A DNA stretch of 36,428 nt, from NCBI GenBank assembly GCA_032718475.1, contig JAUCBJ010002378.1:1-36428 (forward strand), given 5' to 3'. The DNA is from Nemertoderma westbladi (taxonomy: Eukaryota > Animalia > Xenacoelomorpha). Each line of letters opens with the position of its first letter. Position 1 is the first letter of the stretch. The notes under the pieces were generated by a model, which ran no database searches, was not told the origin of the DNA, and was given only the letters and a program-made list of their open reading frames with translations. The position numbers and the translations under genes were made by a program. This document shows positions 5,855 to 35,876 of the stretch, in pieces.

Positions 5855-6007
5855 CATTGATCGCTCCCATATTAAAAATGTGGCTTATAGAATTTGCGTA
5901 AATAATATTATATTTCATTCATATTCATATCCTAGGAAAAAAATTTAGCATCGTTTTACGGCATTTTAATTGATGGAGGAATAGATTATACTTTTGTTGC
6001 AAAGTAG

Positions 6008-7000: not shown

Positions 7001-7018
7001 ATGATTTTAACCCGGGTG

Positions 7019-8390
7019 GTCACTGAAGGATATGTCTGTGAGGCAGAGACCAGAGATTGCTGTGTGATAGGAGGTGATGTCACCCGAGGAAGACTGGTCA
7101 ATTGTCAGCTGGGGATAGTTTATTGTTGGTAGGTAAATAGCTGAGACTGAGGGAGCAACAATGTTGTCAGGGCCTTTGGTATGGCGAATATCAGTTGTGA
7201 ATTTGGCAATGTATGACATATGTCGAGTTTGGAGTGGTGAACGATCAGTAGAGGCTGAGAAAGCGAAGGTAAGTGGCCTGTGATAAGTAAGTATGTGGAA
7301 CTTTGTACCCTCGACGAAGTGTTGGAAGTGTTTAATCGAGGTGTAGATAGCTAAAAGTTCACGGTCGAAAGTGCTGTGCTTCGACTCAGCAGTGGTAAGC
7401 TTCCGGGAAAAAAATGCCAGTGGTTGCCAAACTCCGGAGTTCTGCTGTTCCAGCTGTGCCCCAACAGCAATGTCGGATGCATCGGTGCTGATCCTTGTAT
7501 CACTCGTATGGCTAGGGTGTATGAGGGGGTGGCGTTTATAAGTGCTGATTTTGCGGCTTTAAAGGTGGACTGACAGTTTATTGTCCAGATTACATCTTTA
7601 CCTTTATGCCCTTTGTTGCTTCATGGAGTGCTGAAAGGGTGCTGGCAACACGCGAAATATAGCGGTGATAATATTTATCATTCCGAGGAAACGTTGGAAT
7701 GCAAGTTTTGATTCAGGTACTGGGTAGTCGAGGATGGCAGAAACTTTGGTTGGTAGTGGAGTAATGCCTGTGGCATTGATGTTGTGTCCTAGGTATGTGA
7801 GTTCTGCTGAACCGAAAACACACTTACTACTATTTATTACCATCCCATTGACAAGAAGGGGGCGGAAAACATGTTTCAAGTGGTCTGCATGTTCCTCAGA
7901 GTTTGCACTAGCAACAAGGATGTCGTCTAGGTACACAAATGTGAAGGGAATGCCGCGTAGGATGCCATTCATGAGGCGCTGGAAGGCCTGTGTGGCATTC
8001 TTCAGTCCGAATGGCATCCTGAGGAACTCATATAACCCAAAGGGTGTTGTGATGGCAGTTTTAGCTACATCATTGGTATGGACAGGGATGTGATGAAACC
8101 CTCGCACCAAGTCGATCTTAGAAAACATAGTTGTGCCATCAAGACTGGCATTGAAGTCTTGTATGTGAGGGAGAGGATATCTATCATCCGTTGTGACATC
8201 ATTTAGTTGGTGGAAGTCCACACATGGGTGCCAGCCACCACCAGGTTTGGGGGCGATATGGAGGGGAGTGGACCAAGGTGAGTTGGATTGGCGAATGATA
8301 CCGTGTTCCTCCATGTCTGTGGTCCTCTGTCTTGGCTATTTCCAATTTCTCAGAATTGAGACGCCGAGCTTGAGAGTGAAGTGGTAGGCC
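7019..8390 (-). pseudogene. Gypsy-1 reverse transcriptase and RNase H, frameshifted
   Basis: ORF 7604-8314 has SPWSTPLH, DRYPLP, FSKIDL, MPFGLKNA and YLDD. Downstream RNase H remnants include TDASD, FDRELLAIY and HTKGPDNIVA. Confidence 0.93.
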
Positions 8391-8516
8391 TTGGGTAAGG
8401 AAATAATGTTCTACACCATATTTGTTTGTCGCGTCTGTGTAGAAGCGTGGTATCAGGAGTTCAGGAAACTCATTAATGATCTTGTCGAAGGGATTACCAG
8501 AGTGGGAGTGGATGCC

Positions 8517-8885
8517 TCAGATAGATGGCTGTATGTGGGATTCCTTGGAAGGGATCGTTTCCAGCAGTTTGAAGTCGAGGAGGCGACACCCAGTCATGTC
8601 GATTGCCAAGTGGTTGGTTGTCAGCAAAGACGTCTGCACCGAGAATAGGTTGTGAAACTTCAGCAAGGCGGAACTTGTGGATGAAGGATCAACGACCGAG
8701 TAGGAGAGGGATGTCTCATGAACCCCATGTGCGGATGATGTTTGAGTTTGCAGCTTCAGGTGGATCTGTGCATGTGTTAAACCGCTTTTCATATGCAGAT
8801 GCAGGGTAAACCGAGTAATCGCACCACAGTCTACGAGGTAGTGGCGACCAGAGCGGCGGTCACAAACCTTCATCGTGTTTCTTTT
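8517..8885 (-). pseudogene. Gypsy-1 aspartic protease remnant
   Basis: VCDRRSGRHYLVDCGA is a variant of the D-T/S-G active site; ILGADVF occurs in another frame. Confidence 0.75.
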
Positions 8886-8962
8886 CGTCGTTGGAGGGTG
8901 GCCGACCACAGAGAAGCCTAGCGGTCGGCCTGGGAGTTTCCCGAGGCTTTCCTGTACCATTG

Positions 8963-9699
8963 TTAGGTTGTCAATGTTCGTACTAGTTTGCGGAGTGGGC
9001 AATCCCCTTGTTTACAGTTCCGTGCTTTCTCTCCAAATTTTGCGTAGTAGAAACAAAGGCTGTTTGTAGTGGTCATTAGGTGAGGTGGGGCAAAACGGCA
9101 AAAAATGTAAATGCAGGCTGGACCGAGTTCGGGATTCCCAGCCTCGATAATGTGGTCAGCCTCTGTTGCTAGTTTTTCGAGGTCTGTAGTTCCAGATCCA
9201 GCAAGGATGCAACACACTTCAGTGGGCATTTGGGCCAGGAATAGAGCGCGAAAAATTGTCTCAGGGTTACTATTCAGGGAACGCATGTATCGTAGCAGAC
9301 CCGATGGTGTTCGGTCTCCAAGACCAGACAATGACAGCAGTGCGTTGTCTCTTGCTGCTTGCGTTGTTCCAAATGCTTTGATCAGGGCAATCTTGAGAGC
9401 CCCATAGCGTTCATTAGCGGGAGGAACGAGGATGAGGGCGCGAACTTCTTTTGCGGTTGCATTGTCAAGGGAAGCTAGTTGAACTTGGTCTTGTCAGCAG
9501 TGATTGATGGAGTCCGTGTCTCAAATTGCGCCTCCACTTGAGTGAACCAGATTTCTGGATCAGAGGTCCAAAAAGTAGGTAGTTTGACTGACACAGATGT
9601 GATGGTTGGAGTGGGATTGGTGACGGGCTGTGCCTGTGCTAAGCCGTTGAGGGCCTGGGCGATGAGCAGAATGTCGTTGGGTTCCATCTGTTGCTGCAC
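8963..9699 (-). pseudogene. Gypsy-1 gag
   Basis: VKLPTFWTSDPEIWFTQVEAQF, LGDRTPSGLL, and a CFYYAKFG..A.NC...C zinc-knuckle variant. Confidence 0.88.
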
Positions 9700-10604
9700 A
9701 GTGTGCAGGGTGTGTCAGCGAGAGAAAGTTCTTGATCGTCAACTACTTTTCGAACGAGTAATCAACAATCAACTACTATCCTACTTAAACAAAAATTCAA
9801 TACTATCAGACAGCCAGTACGGTTTTAGAACACACTCCACTACGACAGACGCCATACTCACGGTAACTGAGAGACTACTACAGATACTAGACTCACAGGA
9901 ATATGCTTGTCTAGTATCTATCGACCTTAAGAAAGCATTTGATACACTACAACACCAAATACTATTGGACAAACTAGACTGCTATGGCATACGACGAGGC
10001 ATCCCACACAAACTGCTGACTAGCTACTTACACAAGAGAACACATACCGTTGCAATAGGCAACTCTACTTCAGAATCAATACATGCTTCCTGTGGTACCC
10101 CACAGGGAGCAATACTGAGCGCAACACTGTTCCTACTGTACATAAATGACCTACCAAATTGTACTTCACTACTAACAACACTATTTGCGGACGACACGAA
10201 TCTACTTTATTATCACTCAAACCCTGACACACTACAAGACACTATCACTACTGAACTTAGTAAACTTGATCAGTGGCTCACTGACAACCAACTATCACTA
10301 AACCTTAAAAAAACAGAACACTTAATTATCACAAATAAAAAACACGCCAACATTGCAAATATAAAAATACGACAAACTCCTATTAAAAAAGTAATTCACA
10401 CAAAATTTCTTGGAATATGGATAGACAATGAACTAACATAGAAAAATCACTGTGCCTACGTGCTTAAAAAAATTTCAAAATCTATAGGTATTTTCTTTAA
10501 ACTTCGCTACTTTCTACCACTACACATACTTAAACTACTTTACCACTCCCTTATACAACCATACATTACATACGGGATAGTGATCTGGGGAAATGCTCAA
10601 CCTG

Positions 10605-11724
10605 TGTTCGCGCTTTCAGACCTTTAGCAGTTTAACCTGCCAAATTTGGATGTGTTTTAGATGATAAATAGTCTTTAGCCTATAACAAGTATTTGATACA
10701 CTACATTAGCCGAATCCAGTCTATGCGCGATCATTCACCCGCTGGATATACCCGGGAGACTGGATTCGGAAGCCTAACCGTATTGCGAGGTAGGCCTACT
10801 GTATTATTCGACTGATCGTAATATATATAATCTCTGACAAATATTATTCACTTTCGGGAAATATTAACAGTTCCTTTAGGACGTGGCGCTTTAAATATAT
10901 AAACAGAGTTATGACTTGGAATATGGCGCATTCTTTAGGAGATGCTTCGTTATCAATCACAATCATACACAATACTGCACAATGCTGCACACTAATCTGC
11001 CGACCTTCACTAATTTTAGTCACATATAAGGAGAACAACAGACAATACGTGTAGGGCCTATAAAATAGCATTAGATTCACTTCAAACCACTTAATGTAAG
11101 TCGCAATCGTTATATGTATCCGGTCTCTCTAACCTTTAGTATAAGATTGGGGTGTCTGATTGTTTATCAGTATTCTGAATATAATATTCCATCAACAAAT
11201 AATAATGAATAACCGACAGTAAAAGCAGTAATGTTAAGGTATGAATGATTATGAGTGACTGAGTTATGAGAGTGAGTAAGATAACGGATATACGTTCTAT
11301 AATTAAGCCTACTAATGTTGATGCTAAAGACTGAAACACGGAGGTTCCACGCCGGTGTTGTAGGCTGTGGACAAAATCACATACTGACTCACTTCCCTAG
11401 TTTCTATATACCATCTCCAACACAGAGGCAAAAAACGCTCTGATTGGTCGACCGAACAAAGAGAGAACAAAGAACAAAGAGATGTTCTACGTGGCAATAT
11501 CAGCTGTTAGCCGTCGTCATGGTAGCTACACTGTTTCAAGAGGATCTGGCGTATTGCGTCATAGAATTGCTAATCATGTCCGCTAAAGTACACATACAGA
11601 AGAAATGGCTTTTATGTCCTCTAAAACAACAATACAGTAAGGACACGGCCTTTTATGCCTGTTAAACCAACTACAGAGTACTTTACGGGGAAAATAACCG
11701 GCTAATTACGCAAAAGCCTTTACA
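10605..11724 (-). repeat. BEL 3' LTR (1120 bp)
   Basis: TGTTCGCGC...TTTACA, near-identical to 26400-27556. Confidence 0.96.
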
Positions 11725-11733
11725 CCGCTCCCA
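11725..11733 (-). promoter_or_regulatory. Short purine-rich tract (probable PPT) of the BEL element
   Basis: The minus strand reads GGGAGCGG immediately before the TG of the 3' LTR. Confidence 0.6.
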
Positions 11734-11750: not shown

Positions 11751-14490
11751 CTATAAAATATAACAAATCACAGTTTCTAAAATATAAAAATACTCTAAAC
11801 AGTTAGCCTTTCTTACGCAGACGGCGTTTACGCAGTTTTTTGAGGCTAGCAAGAGTCCTTTTCTCTTTGGGGGGAGCCACTTTACTAGGAGGGCCATAAC
11901 TCCTGGGTGAAGGGTGCAATATGATTGCATCAGAAGGTGTAGGATTATGGTCGAGGCATCCGCCGTTTCGATATGCTTCTCCTCGAGCTGATTTTCCTCC
12001 GCTCGTAGCTGGATACGTTCATCCAAAAACTCTTGCAGAGAATAGGATCGTCCAAGTTCGATAACTTCTTAGAGATTCTGGATTTCCCGATCAAACTGAG
12101 ATATAGTTACTTTGTTTACCGCTTGGACTTGCTAGTGCAATTTACGTTTATCTGAACAAGCGTAAGTTCCTTTTCTGATCTTTGTAGAATAGCGTCTAAC
12201 TCATTTGGTACAACGCTCTCCGCCACTTTGGTGACAGGTTATATCGTGTTAAGCCGGGACGATGGTAAGGGTTAAACGGCGATATTAAATGTCCGCGTCC
12301 CAATCCGGCTAGGTAGGATGGGCTAATATCTAGGAAGCCCACAACCGGGGTGCCACCGACTAATTGTTCAGGTAACACTAGATCTTTGAGTAGTGAGTAC
12401 AGCTCGGGAGGATCCGTCATACTAATAGGATCAAGAGTCTGAGGTCTCACTAGGGAATGAGGAGGTCTGATCGAGTATTCCGAAACTCTGATCATTGGTT
12501 TATTTAAGGATCGTCTGAGTCGAACGAGCGTAGGTGATACGTCAAACAAATTTCGCTCGAAACTCCCGCCAGTATAGCGAGTAAAACCGTGTTTAGTGCA
12601 ACGTCTCCGCGGATGTTTAGGTCTTTCCGTTTGTTGGTTGGGTCTAGGGCATTCCTCGCAATAATACCAAAGACGCACGTCTTGTAGGGGAAACGCGAGT
12701 GATCTTTCTCCAGCTTACAATATTCCTCCATCTGTTCGAAGCTATCCTGTACAACAGGTAGCGGTCGATCGGTGGTAAGATACATCCTAGTGAATAGAGC
12801 CGTTTGAGTTCTACCCTGCGGTCATGATGTATACCTTGAGGATATCGAGTGTCTAGATTCTGTTGACTAGTAATATCGAGATAGGTTTCTCTCAAGAATT
12901 CCCAGTATTTGGTGAAGTCGCTGCGTTTATCCGGCTCTTCAACATCTGCATTTTCGAGTCGGTTTCGAATAGAATTTTCGTGTTCGAGTCTCAGTTTATC
13001 GTTCCGCTTCCGCTGGGTATGATATTTAAATAAAACCATTTCCCTTTTGGTGTCTATCGTTCGTATTGTGTAGGTCGATAGGATGACCAGTAGTTAAGAA
13101 GTCCATATACGTACCATTACGATGCGTATAGCGAGCGGTGAATTTTCTATAGTCCAATTCACGCGTAAGTTGTTCCCGGGACATTGGCGGTTAGATATAA
13201 CGACCATCGGGGTAAATCTTTTCGACCTACGCGTAGGCCTACGCGTAGCTACGCGTAGCTACGCGTAGCTACGCGTAGTTCGCAACATTGGGTCATATAT
13301 CACCAGTTTCAGAGTTTTAACAATAACTACGCGTAGGTGCTACGCGTAGCTACGCGTAGGTCCTACGCGACCTACGCATAGGTGCTACCCATAACTATGC
13401 CTATACGTCGTTTATCATTAGTAGGCTTACGTATTCCAAGCGAGTCAGTACTAAAATAAGACACAATACGGTATGTTCAATAAACAACCCACAACCATCA
13501 AATGCTTTCAACAGTAATGTATCCTATACCTGTATACTCTATATAGAGGAATACGCGAAAACTACATATTCTTCACTTCATGCGTTGCGGGCGGTAAAAT
13601 GTGTTAATAATTAATGTTTAGAGTTCAAAAATAGTTTCCAAAGGAAATAGGCCGATGGTTCTTATCGATTCTCTATGCTTTTTATTGCCTTTGTTCACGA
13701 TAGGGCAAGGATATACTGTATTTAATATGTTAACCCCTTGACAAGGGAAGGGGGAGACTAAATTGTCTACCATGATTGGTTGCACTTGTCATTTGACCAA
13801 ACAATTTGATTATATGCAGTATTTATCAGCTTTCGCTTAACCTCTTCACCGGTAGACTGGTCGCTTTATTTACTACTATTCAATATTTAAATAATCCAAT
13901 GGAAACAAAGATACTTGAATCATGAGACGTGAATTTTAAGTTTACTTTTTATTCATCCTCTGTGTTTGTATATGAAAGAGCCGAATATTATTTATTACCA
14001 GTGCTGTATGTAGAGATATGAGTTTCCGATTCTGTTATTACATTTGTCTGATAATCAGATACCTGACATATACCGATACTTGCCTAACAACTCAACCCTA
14101 CCGGACCTGAAATGAAAAATCATTGTTATCAGGACTGCTACGCGTAGCACCTACGCGTAGCTACGCGTAGCACCTACGCGTAGTTTCAAAATACCTACGC
14201 GTAGTTCCAAAATAACTACGCGTAGTTTTAAAACACCTACGCGTAGTTGTTAAAAAGGCAGTAAGTCTGGCCCTACCGGTAAATGACAGGAATGGAAGTT
14301 ACAAACTACGCGTAGCTACGCGTAGCTACGCGTAGGCCTACGCGTAGGTCGAAAAGATTTACCCCGACCATCGTCCTCCGTAGTAGTTGGACCAGCGTCG
14401 CCGCGTATCAAGCTATCAACAAACGCTTGCAAAGGTAGAGTATATCGCTCCCTGATACCAAGATCATCTTCTATCAACTCAATCATATCT
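11751..14490 (-). pseudogene. Decayed accessory ORF(s) of unknown function between BEL pol and the 3' LTR, interrupted by a MITE
   Basis: Chain of overlapping minus-strand ORFs (12644-13039, 12504-12785, 12196-12678, 11751-12026), plus open stretches at about 13030-13185 and 14370-14490. No family recognised. Confidence 0.6.
13210..14364. mobile_element. Mutator/MULE-type MITE with TIRs built from palindromic decamers
   Basis: Perfect TIR of about 59 bp (GGGTAAATCTTTTCGACCTACGCGTAGG...) and perfect 9-bp TSD CGACCATCG (13201-13209 and 14365-14373). No coding capacity. Confidence 0.9.
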
Positions 14491-16157: not shown

Positions 16158-19100
16158 TTAGGGAGGTGGTCGTGGGAAGAGTATCTTGCCTCCCATAGTT
16201 TCCGGAGAGTTCTCTGTCTCTTCCAGTAAACATAAGCGACCAACTGGGCGATTGAGCTGATGCGTCTCGAAGACAATTCCCGGTTTCTTGAAGTTACGTC
16301 GCATGACGACGAGTTCTACCGATCGCACCAAACCGTCATCCGAGATGTGAGTCTCGATGATACGACCTGTCTGCCACCGCTTACGTGGAAGATCTACATC
16401 CACAATAAGAACCATGTCTCCAGCGCTGACGTTTTCTTGCTGCGCAAACCACTTAGTTCGAAGTTGTAGCGTGGGCAGATAATGTTTTTCGAAATGGTCA
16501 GTGAAACGACGGGATAACAACTGCATGAGTTGCCAAGTTTGCCGGCAGTATTCGTCTCCGTCTGTGATTTCCGATTGTGGGAGCATGGCTACAGGTTTCT
16601 TTAGTAGGAAATGCGCGGGTGTTAGCGCTTCCAGGGAATCGGGACTCGATGAGACTGGCATAAGTGGTCTCTCGTTGAGATAGGTGGCGATTTCCTCCAT
16701 TAACGTCCGCAAAAGTTCGTCGGTGAGATACGCGCGGCACGGCACTATAAAGTGAAATGCGGTCTTCACACTTCTTATTAATCTCTCCCAACTTCCTTCC
16801 CACCAAGGGGCGTCGGCGGCGTTGAAGGTCCAGCTAGACGCTGTTACTCATAGCTGATCGTCCACCTCCAATCTTTGACGTAAGCTTTGATTTCATTGTT
16901 GGCACCAATAAAGTTTGTTCCCTTATCAGATCTCATCGTGTTACTAGTGCCAAAGCGAGCGATCTGTCGTCGTAAGCTTAATAGAAAGCTGTTGGTAGAT
17001 AAATCGTTCACCATGTCGAGATGGATAGCTCTACAAGTCATACAAACAAAGATGACACACCATCTCTTAACTATAGTCCTAGCACGATATACTTCAATGG
17101 GACCAAATAAATCCACACCGGTATTAGTAAAGGGTGGCTCATAGAAGCTTACTCGTTCCCTAGGTAATTCTGCCTCTCGCTGTGTTAAAGGCCTACTGAA
17201 TGCTTTCCTACAGGGTATGCAGTTCCTAAGAACTTGGTTCAGAGCTCTACGGGGTTTATAAAAATAATAGCGAGTTCGAATTTCGCTAAGAACTCGTTCC
17301 CTACCAGCATGATAAAGTTTGCTGTGAACGTCTACAATCATCTTGACTTGTATTTCAAGATTTCTAATGAGTATGGGAAACTTAGTGTCAAAGGATAGTG
17401 GAGCATTCGTTAATCTTCCTCCAACACGTATCAACCCATCTATCATTGTGCTAGAGAAACGATCCCTTAAGCGCATCTGTGGATTTCTCAACAACAGGAA
17501 ATACTTATCGGAATCCTCATAGCATTGCAGGAGTCTCAGCATCTGCTTGTTGGTTTCTTCATGCTCCTGATAACTGATCTTCTCCATCAGAAACCTGTCG
17601 GGTATCTTATATTTGGGAAGATCTTTAATAACATGGACCTGCACTGATGTTATTGGAGCGGTATCACCTTTGGCCTTCATCCCGGAGTATTGATGGTGAA
17701 AACATCTCTTTAAATATGTAACGGCCTTACAGAGCCGATTCCAGGAACTGTAGTGATGTATCGCTCTCTGCAGAAGAGGTGAGAGTCCTTGCGAGACGTC
17801 TGGTATTCCAGATTTCCAATCCTTCTCACGGATTTCCACAACAAGTTTATTTGTGGCTGTGGGTTTCTGATCCAAAGCGTCGTCTCCGGAAATATGTAGT
17901 ACAGACAGATCTACCATGGGTTTGAATAACTTCGATTTACTCGCCCGAGTTTTAGGTTTGACTTTCTCCGCTCCATTGGCCTGTCTAATCTCTGCTGTAG
18001 TAAGATGAGGAGGCCATTCTTCTTCTTCTTTGTAGAGGAAGTCGGGTCCACCTAACCAGTCTGGAGTGTCTACCAGTTCTTGTGGAGTTGCTCCCCTGGA
18101 GGCGATGTCTGCTGGATTAATCGTTCCGGGGCAATGTCTCCATTGCTCCATCGTTGTGCGACTGAGTATAATGGCTACTCTGTTGGTAACGAAGACGCTG
18201 AACTGACAGACTTCATTGGTTATATACTCCAACACGAGTAAAGCGTCGGTCCAATAGACAGTTTTCTCCAGTGGATAGTCGATCTGTTCTGTTACATTCC
18301 GGCCGATGGCTGTAGCGTATAGAGCCGCTTTTAACTCCGCTCGAGGAACTTTCAACTTATTGTTTATCAATGCCTTAGAAGTAACCAAGCCGACTTTGAT
18401 TCCGTCCGGAGTTTCCACCCTTAGGTAGGCTACTATACCTATTCCCATATCGCTGGCGTCTCCAAACACATGGAGTTGATAGGAATACGTAGGGAGAACA
18501 TGACCAAAATATGAACGGGAAATTATAAAGTTCTCGAGGGCTGGTAGAGAATCTTCCCATTTCATCCACTTCTTTAATAATTCTCCCTTAAGTGGATCGT
18601 CCCATGAGTGGTTTTCAAGCCACATTTGTTGTACTAAACTCCGAGCAATCAATATAACTGGGCTAATAATTCCCAATGGATCGAAATAAGTGCTCAGGAT
18701 ACTTAAACAAATCCGTTTAGTCCGAACTGGATTATCTCGCTGTTTTAGTTGGAAAAACAGGATATCTCTTTCGGTGTCCCATTTCAAACCAAGGGTCTTA
18801 GTTTCTGGGAGATCATCTTTTATTAGATCCAGGTCTTTTGCTCCTCGATCTTCTACCGGGATCGACTCCAGAAACTCACGGGAGTTGCTGGTGAATTTAG
18901 TTAATCGAAATCCACCTCTTTTTAAGCACTCTACCGTTCCTTTAGCGACATCAATGGCTTCTTCGACTGATGGAAGGGACTTTAGATTGTCGTCCATGTA
19001 TATATCTCTCTTGATGTTGTCAATCACCTCTTTAGAGAAGGCGTCTCGGTTGTCATCCGCAGTGGTGCGCACTACGGAACAGGCGTTTGAAGGGCTCGAG

Positions 19101-22100
19101 ATTATCCCAAAAGCCTGGATGGTCATCCAGTACTCCACCGGTTTCTGGTTGAGGTCTCCTTCAGGCCACCACAGAAATCGTAGGCTGTCTCGATCCCTAT
19201 CCAGCGCCTTTACTTGTAAGAACATGCCTTCTATATCTGAGGCGAAAGCAATTGAATATTGTCTTAATCTTAAAAGTATTCCCAACAAGGATTGGAGTAA
19301 GTTGGGTCCGGGTAACAATTCAGAATTAAGGGATTGGCCCATATAGAGGGCGGAGCCGTCAAACACCACTCGTACTTCATGGGGTTTACCGGGTTTGGGA
19401 ACATAATGGTGAGTTAAATAATACGTTCTCTCAGTTATAGGTGTTTTTTCCGGTACTAGCTCCGCATATCCCTTGCTAATAAATTTCTTCAACTGCGTTT
19501 GATACATTTCTTTAGCTGAAGAATTTGCCGTAAGGCGTCGATGTAGTTGAGCAATTCTTTTCTCCGCCAAGGGTCTGTTGTTTACAAACTTTGGTTCTCG
19601 CTTTCGGAAAGGTAGACCGATCTCATATCTACCTTGATCTTTAAGAAAATGTGTAGTTGTCTCTTGGATCTGCTTGGCTCTTTCTTCCTCTACCGATAGG
19701 GCCTTATCGTAGGAATTGGGCTCTACAGCCTCTTGAGTAAAGAATCGTACGGCATGTTCATCCCGAGTCTTGGCATTATATCGTTCAATGACATCATTAA
19801 GTTCGTCGTTATAGTCGTCTCGTTCTGATGGAAGAAGGAGCTGACATAAGTTCACTTGGTTTTGCCAAGTCTCGTTTTCCTTAAGGAGATCGATGGTATT
19901 CTCCTCATCGAAAAGTTGGTGGACATCGTCATTATCTGAGGAGTATGGTGTTCCCTCAGTTAGATCATCTAACTCACTGCCCTCGATTTCCCATTCTCTC
20001 ACTTGACATACCTGGTCTTTCGGTAATCTTTCCATGAGAGTTCTACGGGAAGGGCCAGTAAAGTACCAACCCACTCTAGTTCTTCCCGCATAAGCTTGTA
20101 GTGGTTGCAGTTTAGCGGGCCGTTTCTCCAATGTCTCGAGCGCTTCATGCGCGTTTTGACCGATGAGTATTTGCACTCCAGGGTAATCGGTGTTGAATCT
20201 AGGTATTTCTAGCTGCTGGGTGAAATCGTCCTCATCCCAGTTATAAGGTTCCACTTGGGTGTTAGCGAAGTTCTTTATCGCCACCATTTTTACTGACCTT
20301 ATACTATGTTCTCCTAGTTCATCCTGGGGGGTGGACAACGCACCTACATAATAATCCGCTATTACGGTAGATTTCCAAACCTGCATAATTCCTGAAATGT
20401 TTAGCTTAGTTCGGAACTTGGGTTGTCCAGCAAAGATGTCTTCGGCTAGTTCTTTGTCGATGAATGTTCCTGTACTACCGGAGTCAAGGAGGGCGTTCAC
20501 TACATAACTCCTTTTAGGTCCGTGGACCCTTACCTGTACTACAGGAAATTCTCGGATTCCTACATTGGAAGGTGGTGCTTTCCAAGATGGTTGTCGATCA
20601 GAAGTAGTTAGGGTGAGGTCGCTGTCTGTGTCTTTTTCATACGTAAGTGCTCGATACACTGCGGTATTTATCATGTAACAGGATTCACCTTCGTCGGAGA
20701 ATTCGTCTGTATAGAATCCTTCCATCTCAGAGCTTTGGTCAGTGTCGTTCATATCACTGAATTGGACATGTAGTTCGGAATCACTTACCTGACTCTGGCT
20801 GTTTCGCTCAAATTCAGTGTGCAACAAGATATGATGCTTCGCACCGCACTTTGCACACCTTGTGTCGGAGTAACAGGTGCGCCGTTGGTGTCCTTGTCTG
20901 AGGCAATTATAACACAACCGCTTATCCTACATGACTTCTCGTCTCTCCGCTAATGATTTCTTCAGGAATTCATCACACGTATTCAAACGGTGGGTCCCAT
21001 CACATAGCGCACATTTCGGTTTGATGTTACTTACCTTATTTTGAATAACAGTGTGCACACTCGTTCTTTCTTCGGGCTTTCTCACCTGAATTCTCTTGGG
21101 AGACGTAGGAGGAGTTTTTCTTACCTGTTCTCTCCTGTCATTGGTTCGAGACTTGAATTTACTTACCTGGTCTTTAGGCGTTTTATTGACATAATAAGAT
21201 CTTTCAGTGTCTTTCCCGCTATCCTCTCCTTGAGAAGTCTGGCTTTCGCCGTCGTCTGTATAACACACTGGTGTTACCTTTCTCCTAGAGACGGGTTTCT
21301 CACTTACCTTATTTTCCGGTGTCTTCTCTCTGGACTGCTTTATGAGCTGTAATTTCACTTCGCCATCCAAGAATGACATGAGATCAGCCATGGTAGGGTC
21401 TCGTTGTTGTTGTTCCATCATATATAACACTTTCTTGTCCCAGCGTGTACCTACTCCACCCTTCGGTAAAGTAGAAGCCACTGCTCTAATAACCATAGCA
21501 CTCTGATACTCATGAGACTTACCTAGCCAATCTAATTGTCTGCAGATCTCCTGAATCTCATCGGAAAACTCTATAATCCCGCTGCTAATAAACTTTCGGG
21601 GCGCTACCAACTTTGCATACAAATACCCAGCTATGTTATTCCTATTACCATACCTGATGTTTAGTGTATCCCAAACTTGTCTTAATCCGTCTGGATGTCC
21701 AATAAACTTTAACGCCATTAACTTGGGAGATCCTTCCAAGCACTCGATGAGGAATCTAAGTTTCTCTCCATTAGATAGCACAGAGTTCTGTATGTTATCT
21801 TTGTAATATTCATTAAAAGGTAACCATTTCATCTCATCTCCATTGAACTTGACTATCTCTCCCACCTTTACCGCTTGGCGGGCTTCGGTTCTAGCCATTT
21901 GACGCGTAAAACTTTCTTGGGCCATCGTGTTATTTAATATCGAGTTATCGGTATATAAATTTCTCGGTTTATGATCAGGTCTATAGAGAATATCACTATC
22001 AACAGGTCTATAATTACCCTTAATAGGGTTTACTATAGGAGTTTCTACTTCGCTAGCAGTATAGATGCGTGTAGGCTCCACACCTTGCACATGAGATACT

Positions 22101-24213
22101 TCAGACCTAACGGGTTGACATATTGTTACAGGGGGTGGTGATATACCCTTTTGTGTATTTACTAATTTATCGCATTCTAGAGCGATACTTTGCTGCACTT
22201 CTTGCAACTCTAACCTACTTTCCCTTACTGTGCCCTTGAATTGCTGAACAGTCTCCTGCATCTGCCCGAGCAGGAGATCCATCCCCCGTCGTCCCTCATC
22301 CACCCACTCGACCGCCGAAGCGGGAGCCGCCAACGTTGTAGCGGGCCGACGAGGGACAACGGGCGACAAATCATTAATATTTCGCTCGGAGTCCAGGACA
22401 TGAACATTTTCAAGGGTGGTTCTGTGTGGCACAGATAGCTTAGTGCTGTGCAGAGGGAATTTAGAGGTAGGTTCAGGGAGTACAGGTGTGTCTACCACCG
22501 AAAGGGTGGCTTCGGGAACAGGCCTAATTATTTCAGGCTCATCTACTATAGTAGGGAGTCTTTATATTTTAATTATTGGGTCTGTGGGTTCTGTACTACC
22601 TAAGTTTGTGTTATTTAGTTGCCTTCTAACAGCTGGAGGCAAATCAGGCAATTTCTGACGGTGGGATGTTCTTCTACGTCTGCTTAGACGAGACCTATTT
22701 CCTTTGCCTTCAGTATCGGTGGTATCGCCTTCCTCAGATGATGTATATCCCTGTCTTTTGGGAGTAGATCGATTCATCATCTGCATATTACTAGCTGTTA
22801 ACTGTTTATTTATGCAGTCTTGATTCTCCTGAATGTTTTCCAATTCTAATTGGGTGGTTTCTTCAGCCGCTCTCCGTTCTGCTTCTGCCACTGCCTCTGC
22901 CGCTTTTCTTTCCGCTTCTGCCGCTGCCGCTTTTCTTTCCGCCTCGGCCGCTGCCACTGCCGCCTTTCTTTCCGCCTCTGCCACTGCCGCTTTTCTTTCT
23001 ACTTCTGCAGCTGCCACTGTTGCTGCCACTGCCGCTGCCTTTCTGTCTTCTATACGTTTTTTCTTTACTTGTTCTTCTTGGACTCTAGCGATGCGGAGTT
23101 GTTCATCAAATTTAGCTTGGTTCGCAGCTCTCATATCCACATCGATGGCGTCCAACACACGCTGGGTTCCTTCACTATTAGGGCTAAGTCCATCTAGCCT
23201 TCTCCTCAACTCTTCATCACCTAAAAAACGTTGATAGTCTGACAGATAGATGTCAATGGCATCCCTCTTATGTGGTTTCTCTGCCGTCGCTTCACTTTCC
23301 ACTTGTGAAAAAGTAGCGTCTGTTGATTCTCCATGGGTTGAGCGCTCATCTAGCTGAGCTTTCCACTGAGCTGTTCCTTGAACCTGGAGACTCACCCGTT
23401 GAAACCAAGTCTTTACGGCAACTTGCAACGACGTGTCTTGTCTTCTTTTAGAAGCCTCCTCAAAGGCCGATAAGATTAGCCTGATTCGTAGAATTCTTTC
23501 TCTAACTGATAAAGCAGCTGTCCCTGCTCTTGAGGTCCTTGGGGTTGTTGAAACAGTTGTTCTTTTAATCGCTCCATGGAGCTGAAGAATCCCTGTGCGT
23601 ATCCTGCTGCGGATCTCTTCCACACAGCTGGATCGATGGTTTCTTTGGTTACTCCCATCCTGTGTATATCTTCCCAGGCAGCTTCTGATAAATCAAACGG
23701 GAGTCCGGGTCCGGGGAAGTTCCATTGCGACTCGACAATAGACTTCAGTTCTTCCCTTGTATATCCCGCATAACTATCTTTAGTCGATCGCTTACTTCTC
23801 GCCCAATCGATCTGGTGTTCTTCCACCGCAATCAATAACCTAGTGAGTACGGCTGCAGGAAGGATGAGAAGGGGATCCGAATAAACCGCATCCGTCATCT
23901 TTGCTCCGCGCTCGGGTGTCAGCTCTACAGTATCCTCACTACTGGAGCTGTCGGGCCGTTGAGAAATAAGTTCTTGGCTCGCGGGTTGTTGTTGTTCCGC
24001 TGCTTCTTGGTCCCGCTTGACCTGAGCTCTAGTGCCTATGATAGACCTACGGTGTTGGACCAGCCTAGGTTCTGATATTACTACTGGGGGAATGATCTTT
24101 CTTACAGTAGGAGGTGAGTTGAACTTCGGTCTTACACATTCCACACTCCTGTCTGGGTCACATGTGGTTGTATCTAGGAGACTGTCTGACAGGTTTTGCT
24201 TTGTGTCAGACAT
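16158..24213 (-). pseudogene. BEL Gag-Pol polyprotein (about 2,680 codons) with a few disablements
   Basis: Three Cys/His knuckles (CALC..H....C, CYNC...H....C, CAKC...HH..LH), PR LLDSGS, RT YMDD, RNase H VFGDAS, IN H..H/CIPC, GVDLFGP, SDKGTNF and WERLI. In-frame stops at 22562 and 20927; frameshifts near 23600 and 16860. Confidence 0.95.
22860..23045 (-). repeat. Coding Ala/Glu/Arg-rich repeat (about 6 x E-x-ERKAA) in the BEL Gag N-terminal extension
   Basis: AEVERKAAVAEAERKAAVAAAEAERKAAAAEAERKAAEAVAEAERRAA in ORF 22562-23623. Confidence 0.85.
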
Positions 24214-24344
24214 GTTGGTTTGTACAGTTGAATGCCTACTGCTATATTACAGTTTAAGCAAGTCTAGTAATTCAGTATCACTGTTAGCCTAGTAATTAAT
24301 TACCGATACTGCTACTCAGTATAGCGTGATATATATATAATATA

Positions 24345-24598
24345 TTAGAATACCGGTATGCTTATAGTATATATAAGTATTATTACAGACTAGGTTTGTC
24401 ACAGAATACCGGTAGGTAATTTCAGCACAAATATATATAAATATATAATAGGCCTATCGTGAATACCGGTATGCAGCTTACACTTATAGTATATATAAGT
24501 ATAATTATGAACTAGAATTAATTACAGAATACCGGTATAATTTCAGCCTAAAATTTATAGAAATAAATATAATAAACCTATGGTAAATACCGGTATGT
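24345..24598. repeat. Array of five regularly spaced AATACCGGTA motifs in the BEL leader
   Basis: TACCGGTA at 24351, 24407, 24464, 24530 and 24588. Confidence 0.85.
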
Positions 24599-25551
24599 CA
24601 ATTATTTTAAATAATTGAATTTCTGAATTTTTTAGTGGTTACTTGGTTACTTTACTTACTTTATTACCGTTATTTGAGCAGTAGTCCAACTGATATTTAG
24701 ACCTAATTGATGTATGGCAGGCCTACTATTTATAAATCGTTTGAGTTGATTTATAATATATATACCCGTTAAAATGGGTTTTGTCAATATTTGAAATAAA
24801 TGTTATTATTTCTGGGGAAGTCACTACACAGAAGCTATGCGCTCTCAGTGAAGTGCTACTTGTTGGACACTAAAACAAATAATTCTAATTTACCTAAGTT
24901 ACTTAATACTACAAATTACATACAATTCGGGGTGAGATTACAATCTCTAAATAAACACAAAAAATTTACAAGTACGAATTTTTAGGGTAATTTTACAAGA
25001 AGTCTACAAACCAGCCTAACAAAGGGTTAGAATATCTGGTTATTACAACGGACAGGTTACTACGGTATTTGAAAATAATAAGTAGTAGTAAATATACTGC
25101 GTTGTCCAGATAGGAAAATACCACCGTCTGACGACTTATAGCCGTATCGCTATAAGTACTACGTTATGTATCACGGAGTGTTCCTACCTAGAAGTTAATT
25201 ACCGCGGTCTACCAGAACCAATGTGCCTATTAACCACTTTACAACACAAATATACTGCCTACACACTAATCACCTTCGGAAAGCACTGTACACTAAACCC
25301 TAAATTAGGTACAAGTACTTATATAACAAATAATCAGTAGTTAGAAATACTTTAACAGCTAAAAGAACCACGGTATCTGCCGGAGTGACCAAAGCATAAA
25401 ATCTCCAGTCTTTACCTACGCCAAGCAGCCCTGATGTAGTACCGGGGTTAGTTTAACTGTAACGGTATATATAACAAGCACAATTACTGCAGGAATAAAC
25501 TTGGGGATATGAATGTTGCGAATAATAGCATAAACTCTGAATAATAAATAT

Positions 25552-26119
25552 TACGCTACGCGTACAGACTACTCAAACAAAATGCAGACCAAATACTGAC
25601 AGACTACTATCAAGCCTAAACAAACTACGGTATATGCAGACTCCGAAATGGTTAGTTAGTATGCGTTCTAACCTAGTAGTACGACTTATTCTTTCAGAGG
25701 GGGTTTACCTCACAGCACTGGAAGCCCCTACGTTCCCAACTGGCACTTTATCGGACATACACTCTACACACACCGAAATTTCCTCAGACCTAACAACAGC
25801 CAGACAACTATCCAGCCTACAAATTATCTAAATAAGAATTATACGCTACCTGTATAGACTACACAAACAAAGTACAGACCAAACGCTGGCAGACTACTAT
25901 CAAGCCTAAATAAACTACAGTATATGCAGACTCCGAAATGATTAGTTAGTATGCGTTCTAACCTAGTAGTACGACTTATTCTTTCAAAGGGGGTTTACCT
26001 CACAGCACTTGAAGCCCCTACGTTCCTAACTAGCACTTTATCGGACAGATGCTCTACACACACTGCAATCCGTTCAGACTTAACAACAGTCAGACAACAG
26101 TCTAGCCTACAAATTGTCT
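25552..26119. repeat. ~289-bp tandem duplication in the BEL leader
   Basis: Copies at 25552-25829 and 25841-26119 share long identical blocks, e.g. TTAGTTAGTATGCGTTCTAACCTAGTAGTACGACTTATTCTTTCA. Confidence 0.92.
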
Positions 26120-26387
26120 GTACAATCTGAGCAGGCTTACACGCCTTCTGCTCAATATTGGCCTACAAATAAATAAAACTTGACAGAAATAGGCCTAAGT
26201 AAAATCCCAATAAAAACCAGGCGTCCCCGATTAATTATTAAGACCTACTGGTATATAATAATCAAAATCTAATAATACTGCTGTACCTGTACTGCTGTAG
26301 GTACCGGTCCGGGTGGTTAGGTAGTCAGGCCTACTGGGTACCGGTTGGCCGGTACTTCAGCTTTATTGCCTACTGCAATACAGAAGC

Positions 26388-26399
26388 TATATCCGTTAT
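26388..26399 (-). promoter_or_regulatory. Non-tRNA primer-binding position of the BEL element, complementary to its own LTR (candidate self-priming site)
   Basis: The minus strand after the LTR CA reads ATAACGGATATA with no TGG. Its exact complement lies in the LTR at 27113-27124. Confidence 0.6.
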
Positions 26400-27556
26400 T
26401 GTTCGCGCTTTCAGACCTTTAGCAGTTTAACCTGCCAAATTTGGATGTCTTTTAGATGATAAATAGTCTTTAGCCTATAACAAGTATTTGATACACTACA
26501 TTAGCCGAATCCAGTCTATGCGCGATCATTCACCCGCTGGATATACCCGGGAGACTGGATTCGGAAGCCTAACCGTATTGCGAGGTAGGCCTACTGTATT
26601 ATTCGACTGATCGTAATATATATAATCTCTGACAAATATTATTCACTTTCGGGAAATATTAACAGTTCCTTTAGGACGTGGCGCTTTAAATATATAAACA
26701 GAGTTATGACTTAAACTATACACAACGGGATGGCTATAGATTCACGTATATGGCGCATTCTTTAGGAGATGCTTCGTTATCAATCACAATCATACACAAT
26801 ACTGCACAATGCTGCACACTAATCTGCCGACCTTCACTAATTTTAGTCACATATAAGGAGAACAACAGACAATACGTGTAGGGCCTATAAAATAGCATTA
26901 GATTCACTTCAAACCACTTAATGTAAGTCGCAATCGTTATATGTATCCGGTCTCTCTAACCTTTAGTATATCAAGAAGATTGGGGTGTCTGATTGTTTAC
27001 CAGTATTCCGAATATAATATTCCATCAACAAATATAATGAATAACCGACAGTAAAAGCAGTAATGTTAAGGTATGAATGATTATGAGTGACTGAGTTATG
27101 AGAGTGAGTAAGATAACGGATATACGTTCTATAATTAAGCCTACTAATGTTGATGCTAAAGACTGAAACACGGAGGTTCCACGCCGGTGTTGTAGGCTGT
27201 GGACAAAATCACATACTGACTCACTTCCCTAGTTTCTATATACCATCTCCAACACAGAGGCAAAAAACGCTCTGATTGGTCGACCGAACAAAGAGAGAAC
27301 AAAGAACAAAGAGATGTTCTACATGGCAATATCAGCTGTTAGCCGTCGTCATGGTAGCTACACTGTTTCAAGAGGATCCGGCGTATTGCGTCGTAGAATT
27401 GCTAATCATGTCCGCTAAAGTACACATACAGAAGAAATGGCTTTTATGTCCTCTAAAACAACAATACAGTAAGGACACGGCCTTTTATGCCTGTTAAACA
27501 AACTACAGAGTACTTTACGGGGAAAATAACCGGCTAATTACGCAAAAGCCTTTACA
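26400..27556 (-). repeat. BEL 5' LTR (1157 bp)
   Basis: TGTTCGCGC...TTTACA. It differs from the 3' LTR by about 7 substitutions and 3 indels on my manual comparison. Confidence 0.96.
27212..27280 (-). promoter_or_regulatory. Candidate LTR core promoter (CCAAT, TATA-like, Inr-like)
   Basis: Minus strand has ACCAATCAG (27280-27272), TATATAG (27242-27236) and TCAGT (27219-27215). The TATA-Inr spacing is slightly short. Confidence 0.45.
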
Positions 27557-28345
27557 ACCTGCACACATTAACCCAATTAAAATTAAAGTTAACAAACTTA
27601 TCAGAGCAGTTACTTTCAGTCACTACCAAAAACACGCACCACCACTTTACAAACAACTTAACATACTTCCGATCGAACAACTACACCGACTCGAAACCGC
27701 AAAATTAATGTGGGAAATCAACCACGGAAAGAAACAACCTTTTATTACCTCACTGTTTAAACAAATATCCACTATACATACATATAACACACGGTCAGCC
27801 TCAAGTAAAAACTGTTTTATTCCACGTATACGTTTACAACACGCACAAAAATCACTAAAATATCACGGTGCCATTGTCTGGAACTCGTTAGACAACAGTC
27901 TAAAACAATGCAAATCTAAAATATCACTCGCACACAAATTAAAAATTCAATTAATTTCTGAACTAAACTAAATAAAACATCAATACTGAACATAAGGGTA
28001 CTTAAGTAGGTAAACTAAATTAAATAACATAAATAAATAAATAAATAAAATAAAATTTAACAGTAAAACAATAATCACTTGAATAACTAACTTTTTTATA
28101 AACACAAACAAATACTATACACACATACTATAAAAGTATACATAAAAGACCGCTGACCGAAGCCAACTACACTAGCTTAGGCTACAGTTGGCTTCTATCA
28201 GTGCATTGCATCATAACTCTAAAAGACGCCCCCTAACCCTAACCGAATTCGTCAATACCTTTCTAAATATTACCAAAGTGGTGGCGGTTATATTACCGGT
28301 ACAGTAATGTGCGGTCTATTTGAGAAAGGAAATAATAATCAGTTA

Positions 28346-30633: not shown

Positions 30634-33600
30634 CTACTACTACTAGGTCGAGCGAACTCGGACAGTGGAAATGAGATCCTTCCAGGCTTCCCGATTCTCC
30701 ATAGTTGTCGCAATTTCGTTTCTCCCAAGTTCAGTATCCCTTTCAAGTTGATCTATATATGTTATGGCCGGTCGTCCACGACTACGCTTTCCAAGAGTTG
30801 GTTGCCAGAGAAGTAGATCTGGTATGACCTCGTCTTTACTTCGCCAGCAGTGCCCACTGAATCTTAATCTGCGTTCACGGAGGGTGGTTGATACAGGCGG
30901 TATTGTACCATAAAACTCGGCCTTTGTCACGTGTTGTCTCCAGCTGATGTTTTAGGGCTACCCTTAGTAGTCTTGTGTAGCAACCATCAATTCGTTGTTC
31001 AAGTGATTTAGTCAGTGTCCAGGTCTCACCCCCGTATAAAAATACACATTCCACTGTGGCTCGAAATAACTTAGACTTCGGGTGCCTGGAGAGATCTGAT
31101 TTCCAGATGGTATCCATTTTTGATAGAGCTACCCAAGCCTTTGATTTCCTAACTTCTATGTCCTTTTTGCTACTCTCTATCCATGATCCAAGGTACTGGA
31201 AGTCATCGACCTTCCTTAGTTGATTATTTATTATCAATGGTTGTCAAGTTTCCATCAACATCAAATGTCATGAATTCGGTCTTGGTAGCATTTATATGCA
31301 ATCCAACCTCCTTAGCAGCCCTCTCAACTTTATTTAGTAGAAGCTGTGCATCTGCTAGCGTATTAGAGAGCAGGGCGATGTCATCCGCAAAGTCGGTGTC
31401 TGTGACTGTAGTTGCCGGATATCTACTACTTCTGCGTTCTTGAAGTGTGAATCCCAGGTCTTCACCCTTTGTGGCTGTCCTCATTGCGTAATCCAGCACA
31501 ATTACAAATAGTAATGGTGCTAATGTGTCACCTTGCAGTACGCCAGCCAGGATTGAGAAAAACTCAGTTTCACCATCTGGTGAGAGTACCTGCGCTTCTG
31601 TGTCACAATATAACAATCCGATGCCAGCAACGATTACTTCTGGTATTCCATAAGCTCTTAGGATTTCAAGCATTTTACCTCTATGGATGGAGTCGAATGC
31701 CTTCTTGAAGTCCACAAAAGTCATGACTGCGGGGAGATTCTATTGTTGATCTACTTGGTCGAAATCCGTTTAGGCTCTTACGCAGTAGTTTCTCCATGTG
31801 AGGCCTAATCCTATATAGAATCATTTTATTGTATATTTTGGCAGCTACTACAAGCAGACAGATCCCACGATAGTTTGTTGGTATGCCGAGGTCTCCTTTC
31901 TTGGGGAGAGGCTTTAGTTGACCTTTAGTCCAAATTGGTGGTGGCTTTTCCCCTTTTAACATCCGGTTGCAAACATTCATTCAATAATGGTCTATTTAGC
32001 ACTCCGGTTTTCCATACCTCCGCTGGGATTTCATCTAATCCACTCGCTTTAATATTGGACATGCTTTTAATGCTTCTTTGGAGCACGGCAGGTGTGAAGT
32101 TCCCTGTCTCTATAGGTAGTGTCTTGTCATATATTTTCCTTGTAGGGCTGACCTCGATGTTTGGTGGCTGCCCAAGCAAGTTGCTGAAGTTCCCAACACG
32201 TTCTTCTGGACTATCGGATTTGAGGCGCCCCGTTGCACAACTTTTCCGACCAGATACCTCATTTACAGTTTGCCAGGTAAGTCTTGATTGTTGCTGTATG
32301 TGAGCAGTTGTAATTGCTTCAATTTTACCCTGTATGTACTTTTCCTGGCTGATGTTGTAGGCCAATTTAAGATCGTCCTTATCTTTCTCAACCTTGTTAA
32401 TGTTTTCGGTTGTTGGTTGTTCGGTTTTAACTTTGTAGGCTATTTTAAGAAGATCTTCTCTCTTCAAGTAACCTCAGAGTTTTGCCATGGCACATACTGT
32501 TTTGTTTGGGTTTCTGGGGGATATGCCTCTTAGCTGATTCCTTGTGGGCTGTTATTATATTCTGGTATATTGAATCGGTGCGGTGGACTGGTCTTCATCC
32601 ATTGACTGAAGTGCTTCAAAGCGGTTTTGAACTTCTACTGTGTAAGCATCCTTTACAGCACTGTCAATTCTGAGTTTCTCCCAGTCATAGTTGATTTGCT
32701 TGCTTGTCCTGGGTTTGCTGGCTCTCAAACTGAATCTGATCTCAGCAGTCACAATTCTGTGGTCCGAACCAATTAGGTTGAACGAGCTGTATGCCTCGCA
32801 GTTAGTTGATCATGCTGTTTCTCCACTTTTTGTTTATAAGGATGTAATCCATTAGGGTATTGAAAGGTCCATAGCTTACCCTTACTCTTTTGGAATGTGT
32901 TGTTTGTTGGTATCAATTCACATTCTTCCATTAGGTCTAAAAGTAAGTACCCATTTCTGTTAGAATTGGTGTTTTAGGTGTAACCCTTGATGTCTTCTGG
33001 GCCAATTTGCGCATTCAGGTCACCAGCAATAACTTTAATATTGTGTTTCGGAATGTCCTTCATAAGCCCAGTCAGATCTTCATAAAACTTGACTGCTTGT
33101 TCTGGCTCTGAGGCATTGGTTGGACTGTAGCAACATATAACTGTTGCCTTGGGATTCCCATCAAATGTTGCGATCATAACCCTGGAATTTATAGATTCGA
33201 TGTTGTTTAGGGTCTTAAGTGCAAATGGGCTTATCAGAATTCCTACTCCTCCAATTGATGCATTGGCCGAGTTTCTTACTGCTGAGCTTGTTACTAACGT
33301 CCATCCATTTCCAATGTCATTGTACTTCATGGCAGTGCCTTCATGACAAATCCGATGTTCTTGGATGCAGATGATGTCGATGTTATATTCCATTGACAGA
33401 GCGACCATGTCACCCTGTTTGGTATGTGCTTTCAGCGTGCGTGCGTTCATTGTAGCAATCCTTAGTGTTTTTTTACATTTCAACAGGTTTGGTTCTTCTT
33501 TCTTCTCTGTTTTCTGTTCCAGTAGCCAATTTATCGACCCCAGCCTCAGCCTGGTGTACCACTGAGGGACGCGGTCCTTGTTGACCCGGGCGACGACCGA

Positions 33601-33759
33601 GCCGGTATTTCTCCTGGAGGGTTCTCATACCCATTACCTTCCGCCGACCTTGTCAGCATGTCTAGCCGTTGGTTGATTATCTTCCGCCTATCCATGGCCT
33701 ACAGCCCTGCTGCCGACTATAGGTGTTCTTTTGTTACACCTTGAACCAAGTAGGCTGTA
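30634..33759 (-). mobile_element. Near full-length RTE-clade LINE (about 3.1 kb), frameshifted
   Basis: APE endonuclease at 32974-33483 (IATMNARTL, ICIQEHR, YSPT, IAGDLNA). RT motifs FVDFKKAFDS, GVLQGDTLAP and DFADD. C-terminal LRFSGHCWR...RGRP. (TAG)n tail at 30634-30645. 12-bp TSD ATGGCTGTTTTA (30622-30633 and 33760-33771). Confidence 0.94.
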
Positions 33760-34720: not shown

Positions 34721-34928
34721 ATACGACCCGCCAAGCTGCTGCAAAGCCCCTAGATTTAGTGGGCCAGTTATTTATCTTAGATAGAACCCCTGAAACAATA
34801 TGTCAGCACGTCGATAGTAAAATCGTCGATAGTCAAATGTACTTGTCCCTCACTAAAATTATGTCCTCTTTCAGATGAGGCAGATAAAAAATTTTTAACT
34901 CCAGTAAGTTTTTCCCATTCCCTGTTTG

Positions 34929-35690
34929 TACACCCCTTCCCGGATCCAATAAAACTTGGAAATTAACTTGAACCCGCGATTTACACCCCTTCCCGGATCC
35001 AATAAAACTTGGTAATTAACGTAAATCCGTGTTTTACACCCCTTCCCGGATCCTTAAAACTTGGTAATTAACATAAATCCGTGTTTTACACTCCATCCCG
35101 GATCCAATGAAACTTGGTAATTAACTTGAATCCGCGATTTACACCCCTTCCCGGATCCAATAAAACTTGGAAATTAACTTGAATCCGCGATTTACACCCC
35201 TTCCCGGATCCATTAAAACTTGGTAATTAACGTAAATCCACGTTTTACACCCCTTTCCGGATCCAATGAAACTTGGTAATTAACTTGAATCCGCGTTTTA
35301 CACCCCTTCCCGGATCCATTAAAACTTTGTAATTAACTTGAATCCGCGTTTTACACCCCTTCCCGGATCCAATAAAACTTGGTAATTAACTTTAATCCGC
35401 GTTTTACATCCCTTCCCGGATCCAGTAACAGTTGGTAATTAACATGAATCCGCGTTTTACACCCCTTCCCGGATCGAATAAAACTTGGTAATTAACGTAA
35501 ATCCGTGTTTTACACCCCTTCCCGGATCCATTAAAACTTTGTAATTAACTTTAATCCGCGTTTTACACCCCTTCCCGGATCCAGTAACAGTTGGTAATTA
35601 ACATGAATCACGCGTTTTACACACTTTCCCGAATCCAATAAAACTTGGTAATTAACGTAAATCCGTGTTTTACACTCCATTCCGGATTCA
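34929..35690. repeat. Minisatellite, 53-bp unit, about 14 copies
   Basis: Unit TTACACCCCTTCCCGGATCCAATAAAACTTGGTAATTAACTTGAATCCGCGTT repeated in tandem. Confidence 0.95.
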
Positions 35691-35876
35691 CAAAATATAT
35701 GAATCCGCGTTTTACACTGCAATACGGATTGCGTATTTCAGAATCCGCATATTACACTCAGTTACGGATTGTATGTAAATCCGGATCCGCCTTTTACACT
35801 CGTAAATCCGGGTCCTGATCCGTATCCGGATCCTGAATCCGGATCCGGATCCGGATCCGCGTTTTACACCTACCCC
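35690..35876. mobile_element. Probable right terminus of a TIR DNA transposon (GGATCC arrays ending TTTTACACCTACCCC)
   Basis: Short variants of the satellite motif and (CCGGAT)n end abruptly in TACCCC. The reverse complement starts GGGGTA, like the MULE MITE. The partner end is not in the window. Confidence 0.5.

Follow-up and report, generated by a model that had tools for sequence, protein, structure and literature searches.

The 36,428-nt contig JAUCBJ010002378.1 of the xenacoelomorph Nemertoderma westbladi (assembly GCA_032718475.1), analysed whole and hereafter called the window, carries a long terminal repeat (LTR) retrotransposon on its reverse strand (Table 1). This element is of the BEL/Pao type by its proteins, LTRs, target duplication and polypurine tract (PPT). 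The Pao-specific Pfam families Peptidase_A17, DUF1759 and DUF5641 match with E values of 7e-36, 4e-11 and 7e-21, two Cys-His boxes are found by regular-expression match, RNase H motifs are also present, and Pfam gives no chromodomain match in the element. Its best listed homologues, all with PF05380, are 34-44% identical across reverse transcriptase (RT)-RNase H; those with names come mostly from corals, a nemertean, a sea urchin, bivalves, a barnacle and fish. The two LTRs align with 1112 matches, 7 mismatches (1119 aligned bases) and 4 indels, few enough differences to make the insertion young; gag-pol is interrupted by in-frame stops near 22562 and 20927, plus frame changes. The element is not a canonical semotivirus as profiled by ICTV, the international virus taxonomy committee: it has no transfer RNA (tRNA) primer-binding site (PBS), and its genome size lies outside the range. 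We suggest, with a probability of about 0.72, that it primes minus-strand DNA with RNA of its own LTR in the manner of Tf1.

Results

A primer-binding site with an exact complement in the LTR

Priming by an intact tRNA, whose terminal letters are CCA, needs a TGG in the PBS. The first TGG past the 5' LTR lies at +181, leaving 180 nt without one, a wider gap than the ~50 nt for which the initial annotation had reported its absence. Instead, positions 26399-26388, immediately past the LTR's terminal CA (26400), spell ATAACGGATATA on the element strand. As first reported, the complement of this 12-mer is exact and flush with the LTR end; it occurs at 27124-27113 (LTR nt 433-444) and, in the 3' LTR, at 11292-11281, and nowhere else in the window. 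Dinucleotide shuffling of the LTR reproduced a match of at least 12 nt at offset 0 in 5 of 20,000 trials (2.5e-4, close to the earlier rough figure of ~2e-4) and in 11 of 20,000 with offsets 0-5 permitted; the PBS shuffle test on the element gave 1/300, and the best foreign PBS reached only 7 nt. ARAGORN found no tRNA genes in the window, and Rfam gave no match at the PBS and one chance match only over 24000-28000.

Beyond a 2-nt mismatch the pairing could be extended, by the 4 Watson-Crick pairs that had been noticed earlier or by 7 pairs with one G-U, for a duplex energy of -22.4 kcal/mol with the extension and -13.3 kcal/mol without it. These pairs are present; because 139 of 2,000 random LTR 12-mers are extended as well, the extension is not significant alone and carries no weight.

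Family conservation ends next to the predicted primer 3' end

Six of the seven listed sequencing runs include part of the LTR; all are contigs, none recorded as RNA, and contig depth reflects shared words rather than copy counts. X6, the one run presumed to be RNA, likewise consists of contigs, has a small share and was left out as evidence for expression. Contigs placed on 26250-27600 cover the LTR at very high summed depth and with many differences, pointing to a large, diverged family. In run X1, summed depth is about 210,000-336,000 over 27116-27150 as against 800-4,700 over 27060-27108. Runs X2 and X3 repeat this step, X4 has zero cover below 27109, and in all three deep runs, the samples from which the step in conservation derives, the primer block is covered tens of times more deeply than the downstream patch. 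No substitutions at a frequency of at least 3% are listed over 27111-27154, where small indels occur at 27129 and 27151-27154, and contigs of X2, X3 and X4 depart from the window sequence right at 27112/27111, leaving loose ends. Part of the low depth in the narrow placement (27060-27250) is an edge effect; a wider placement, free of edge effects there, likewise dips at 27078-27123 and recovers beyond. Family conservation thus ends at 27112, one base beyond the predicted primer 3' end.

The RNA start site and predicted folding

Predicted pairing between primer and PBS depends on where the RNA begins, with a probability of 0.84-1.0 for starts at 27124-27148 and 0.38-0.84 at 27156, and this permissive range coincides with the conserved block. 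The initial annotation had favoured a TATA-like word at 27242 with a start at 27217, a proposal now weakened: the word is altered in the loose-end contigs of X2 and X4, and no duplex is predicted for starts from 27164 upstream, with a pairing probability of 0.02 or less. The upstream words at 27217-27279 are ones that we take to be CCAAT, TATA, AP-1 and initiator (Inr) motifs, of which the CCAAT and AP-1-like ones precede the primer by 100-155 nt; the Inr-like words 3' of the primer sit inside the variable patch. An RNA start within or immediately before the conserved block, at about 27124-27156, is the better fit. Such a start would lie closer to the Tf1 arrangement than the initial annotation feared in its caveat on the start site. 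The only AATAAA near the 5' LTR, at 26367-26362 on the reverse strand, lies 33 nt past the LTR end and beyond the PBS, where it could end a short LTR-PBS transcript.

Relatives carry self-complements in other letters

We gathered relatives with an alignment of 31 proteins. Of 550 metagenome matches, 80 were retrieved; contaminated prokaryote bins yielded 38 loci and a further 25 regions. The prokaryote bins (L081-L118; G001-G010) carry animal BEL/Pao elements with at most 14 matches per bin, which is host contamination; viral contigs queried with a single protein or with the alignment gave no relative. An LTR pair fixed the LTR end in 25 loci, four of them uncertain (L004, L006, L013, L056), and near-copies such as L128-L132 and L121 were counted once; the end could not be fixed for L119, L123, L125, L126, L133 and L138.

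Under a strict splice rule, 8 of the 14 loci with a non-tRNA site have a self-complement of 11-14 nt, each reached by 0-1 of 300 PBS shuffles. The match runs across a GT-AG intron in L001, L025, L035, L089, L093 and L109 (L035 and L093 being a single family) and is unspliced in L072 and L004. A looser acceptor rule adds L086 and L135, with 11 nt and a GTAAGT donor, bringing the count to 10/14. By comparison, the self-match stays at or below 6 nt in all 11 TGG-site loci. A scan anchored at the gag start found at least 11 nt in 16/58 loci versus 1/58 and 2/58 in two controls, the 16 including near-copies and two low-complexity matches. A looser look at 14 loci, made without a control, gave 11 nt in L016, L055 and L090 (the last spliced, next to gag) and 10 in L075. 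When all CA sites were scanned without an anchor, spliced matches were modestly enriched (14 vs 4 and 6 in controls), and the unspliced scan was uninformative (39/88 vs 37 and 35); unspliced matches from it, such as one of 13 nt in L090, were dropped.

The letters of the self-complement vary by family, and both partners are altered in the sister pairs L085/L089, L001/L040 and L035/L036; a host-supplied primer does not predict that PBS and LTR change together between families. In 20 loci a GT-AG intron of 76-1022 nt interrupts the LTR, and only across its junction is the LTR complementary to the PBS, for 10-14 nt, again with letters that differ by family (L001, L016, L019, L025, L028, L035, L036, L040, L048, L055, L068, L075, L080, L084, L085, L086, L089, L090, L109, L135). 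L072 has a splice-acceptor-like stretch before the second primer half at its 5' contig end (1-170) and an unsplit primer in its 3' LTR (6694-7103); either intron-bearing and intron-less LTRs occur in one family, or the contig is chimeric. The closest locus by score, L037, has no readable PBS. L119-L123 are BEL/Pao-like, and L120-L122 are ~21 kb long with one or two extra open reading frames of 500-1000 aa past pol; L120-L122 were rejected as architectural relatives on finding that their sites are of the TGG type. ARAGORN made two tRNA calls on 21 loci, of no use as a host set.

The window element is unsplit and on a long branch

The primer of the window element is unsplit, as in the 3' LTR of L072, and a GT-AG intron splitting it was not found in the window LTR. 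A splice-built primer was tried there and rejected, the best spliced match being 11 nt with a non-consensus donor (6/150 shuffles); the best PBS match in the element is the unspliced 12 nt, with none better under the strict splice rule. Among the relatives with a defined second exon, 10/12 have the poly(A) signal in that exon.

We built RT-RNase H trees on unnamed loci, and the window element forms a long branch in them. With 221 rows, FastTree places it inside a set of self-primer rows; with 101 it leaves the placement unresolved, and IQ-TREE puts it in an unresolved group holding self-primer rows and two TGG rows. A common origin of the self-priming trait with these relatives is possible on this sequence comparison.

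Discussion

A proposed mechanism

We suggest that the 12-nt segment 27124-27113, which we predict to be located at the 5' end of the RNA or close to it, would pair back with the PBS adjoining the 5' LTR. A cut at roughly 27113/27112, probably made, as in Tf1, by the RNase H of the element, would then free the primer, whose extension would give about 713 nt of strong-stop DNA; RNA ends at the cut and a strong-stop product of that size are what the mechanism predicts. Most relatives would put the primer together by splicing out an intron of the LTR, and the window family would carry it unsplit. With an intron-split primer the cut would keep the junction out of strong-stop DNA, so that the intron could persist in new LTRs. 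The observations in support are that the complement is exact, that a TGG is missing, that family conservation breaks off at 27112, and that relatives repeat the relation in other letters. The conservation edge and the relatives' own self-complements lend support to the idea of tRNA-free self-priming put forward in the initial annotation; start site, duplex formation, cleavage and priming we infer from sequence.

Several observations weigh against self-priming. Four of the 14 non-tRNA relatives have no 11-nt match: the match is 9 nt long in L013, is broken by an internal mismatch in L082 and is absent from L006 and L056. The primer lies 713 nt from the LTR end in the window element versus 48-175 nt in the relatives, and AATAAA/ATTAAA is absent from the window LTR. 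Given the unresolved placement of a long-branch element, the relatives offer an analogy rather than a proven homology. Co-variation of PBS and LTR, which had been proposed as a check, appears between sister families of relatives and was not shown within the element's own family, whose contigs gave no phasing; one X4 contig end is altered at two of the 12 primer positions, with its PBS partner unseen. For starts at 27164 or upstream the predicted pairing drops to 0-0.05, and the long-range folds appear fragile, one 27133-start fold also losing the pairing when its 3' end is placed farther out, at 26200. Arms like those of the Tf1 pretzel structure were not above chance (292 and 423/500 shuffles; 50-nt flanks tried).

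An alternative that we consider unlikely is that the conserved block is a core promoter with a start at ~27105-27092, so that the RNA 5' end would lack the 12-mer; a self-derived primer would then be supplied by the copy in the 3' LTR (11292-11281) or by a separate, short transcript of the LTR. In favour of such a promoter are a TATA-like word (27133-27126) and the Inr-like words at 27094 and 27080, the family is very abundant as LTR sequence, and the AATAAA at 26367 could terminate the short transcript. However, the proposed start region is the most variable patch, and the spacer would be the conserved part. In the relatives, moreover, the primer lies just upstream of the poly(A) signal, and in L001 and L089 it follows a TATA-like word by 29-36 nt, a position within R and near the 5' end.

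Quite unlikely, in our judgement, is priming by a host RNA, a tRNA fragment or another small RNA, with the LTR complement serving as a structural switch by which the PBS is hidden or exposed. Half-tRNA priming is known in Ty1/copia lineages, according to the accessible parts of PMC6317226, and the start-dependence of the predicted fold is what a switch would show. Yet a host primer would fix the PBS, and the PBSs of the non-tRNA relatives vary, each matched by its own LTR; the window match is also flush with the LTR end, its edge coincides with the edge of conservation, and the site has no Rfam match. A chance match, or a functionless local inverted copy in a decayed element, is largely refuted and highly improbable: many elements were scanned, the element is broken, and the LTR has an unrelated 14-nt complement at 13429 in the nested insertion, but the position-specific probability, the family-wide conservation edge and the 8-10/14 relatives versus 0/11 TGG loci all speak against it.

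Self-priming by LTR RNA thus remains our preferred explanation, and it permits a broader scenario that we hold only tentatively, at somewhat less than even odds. An aquatic-animal BEL/Pao lineage may have dropped tRNA priming, with spliceosome-built primers of 11-14 nt in most families; this high-copy family would be intron-free, with its primer 713 nt away and one start site usable, and the choice of start would act as a priming switch.

Comparison with known systems

Self-priming is described for Tf1/sushi and predicted for the Tcn1 and TAR lineages in the accessible parts of two sources (PMC6317226, PMC4600332), which shows that more than one superfamily has acquired the trait (PMC6317226). 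Annealing in Tf1 involves the first 11 bases, with the RNase H cut falling between bases 11 and 12, as far as the available portion of that report goes (PMC7175516), and the arms of a pretzel structure are described in the available portion of another (10.1101/2022.12.06.519325). Like Tf1, Tf2 and Tj1, which belong to the Tf1/sushi group of Ty3/gypsy chromoviruses, the window element has no tRNA site, an 11-12-nt LTR-derived RNA that could pair with a PBS adjoining the 5' LTR, and a predicted primer end flush with the LTR end (same portions of PMC7175516, 10.1101/2022.12.06.519325). Unlike them, it has BEL/Pao proteins, no chromodomain match and hence a different superfamily, a 713-nt loop with no pretzel arms above chance, a primer whose place at the RNA 5' end is a prediction only, and relatives that mostly split the primer by an intron.

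Self-priming has likewise been deduced from LTR-PBS complementarity for Tcn1 (gypsy) and TAR/Houba/Osr-1 (copia), in the accessible text of PMC6317226. In contrast to the window element, those belong to other superfamilies and to plant and fungal hosts, and that text gives no BEL/Pao example. Cer7 of C. elegans, of the BEL/Tas type, has reportedly been proposed to encode its own tRNA-like primer; it would share independence from host tRNA within BEL/Pao, but a tRNA mimic is a different mechanism, and the window has no tRNA gene.

Belpaoviridae (genus Semotivirus) are described by ICTV as tRNA-primed, with an 18-nt PBS for host tRNA-Arg or tRNA-Gly and a 4.2-10-kb genome (PMC8742986). The window element resembles them in its LTR length (0.2-1.2 kb in the family), PPT, gag-pol order of protease (PR), RT, RNase H and integrase (IN), and animal host, and differs in having no tRNA site and a length of 16.95 kb; a self-priming route would lie outside that description (PMC8742986). 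The main text of a BEL/Pao survey (PMC3118150) contains no primer, PBS, tRNA or intron, the Sinbad paper (PMC554778) makes no mention of PBS or tRNA, and no BEL/Pao self-priming case was found in the accessible parts of PMC8220671, PMC13524379, PMC3601003, PMC5443660 and PMC3286476. Nor was one found in the searched literature as a whole, which did not include most subscription papers, Repbase or supplements. The element likely works like Tf1 without being a member of Tf1/sushi, the mechanism being known and the BEL/Pao case likely new.

If this is true, self-priming extends to all three LTR superfamilies and to invertebrate-type animal elements, and a sizeable BEL/Pao group is overlooked or wrongly labelled by annotation pipelines based on tRNA. 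Control by tRNA 3' fragments would also fail to reach such elements. The window family, as the unsplit and high-copy case, is the natural comparison for its intron-split relatives.

Table 1. Features of the retrotransposon and its surroundings, in window coordinates
Feature	Position	Strand	Remarks
LTR retrotransposon, whole	27556-10605	-	16,952 nt (16.95 kb); 15.8 kb minus the nested insertion
5' LTR	26400..27556	-	1157 nt, TG...CA
3' LTR	10605..11724	-	1120 nt, TG...CA; second copy of primer sequence at 11292-11281
Target-site duplication, 5 bp	27557..27561 (twin 10600-10604)	-	within old LINE RT gene on + strand
Upstream promoter-like words	27217..27279	-	CCAAT box 27279, TATA-like 27242, AP-1-like TGAGTCA 27223, Inr-like 27219
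Block common to subfamilies	27112..27150	-	contains primer; candidate RNA 5' end
Possible 7-bp extension pairing	27127..27133	-	partner 26385-26379, across 2x2 loop
Predicted self-primer	27113..27124	-	exact 12-nt PBS complement; predicted 3' end 27113, 713 nt from LTR end
Variable CT/CA-rich patch 3' of primer	27078..27111	-	depth dip, loose ends; Inr-like words 27094, 27080
Primer-binding site, non-tRNA type	26388..26399	-	flush with LTR end
5' leader, 2.2 kb	24214..26387	-	contains 290-nt tandem duplication; AATAAA at 26367
gag-pol, five open segments	16161..24213	-	Gag(DUF1759, Cys-His boxes)-PR-RT-RNase H-IN-DUF5641
Nested MITE-like insertion	13209..14365	.	terminal inverted repeats, 7-9-bp target duplication
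Degraded coding-like stretch before PPT	11800..13100	-	no Pfam match at curated cut-off
Polypurine tract	11725..11733	-

Other features of the window

The Gag N-terminal region (22850-23040, reverse strand) contains Ala/Glu/Arg-rich repeats of 27-33 nt that look coiled-coil-like, and Gag is unusually long. The nested insertion, which resembles a miniature inverted-repeat transposable element (MITE), is 1.16 kb long and holds arrays of a palindromic 10-nt unit; the degraded reverse-strand stretch between it and the PPT occupies the position of an extra 3' gene.

The retrotransposon splits an old RT gene of a long interspersed nuclear element (LINE) on the forward strand (9542-10604 and 27557-27971), whose coding appears to resume past the target duplication. 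Elsewhere, pieces of a gypsy-like element, with RT, RNase H and integrase, and of a LINE, with endonuclease and RT, lie on the reverse strand at 2508-9493 and 30643-33624, and a tandem array with a period of 53 nt occupies 34828-35727.
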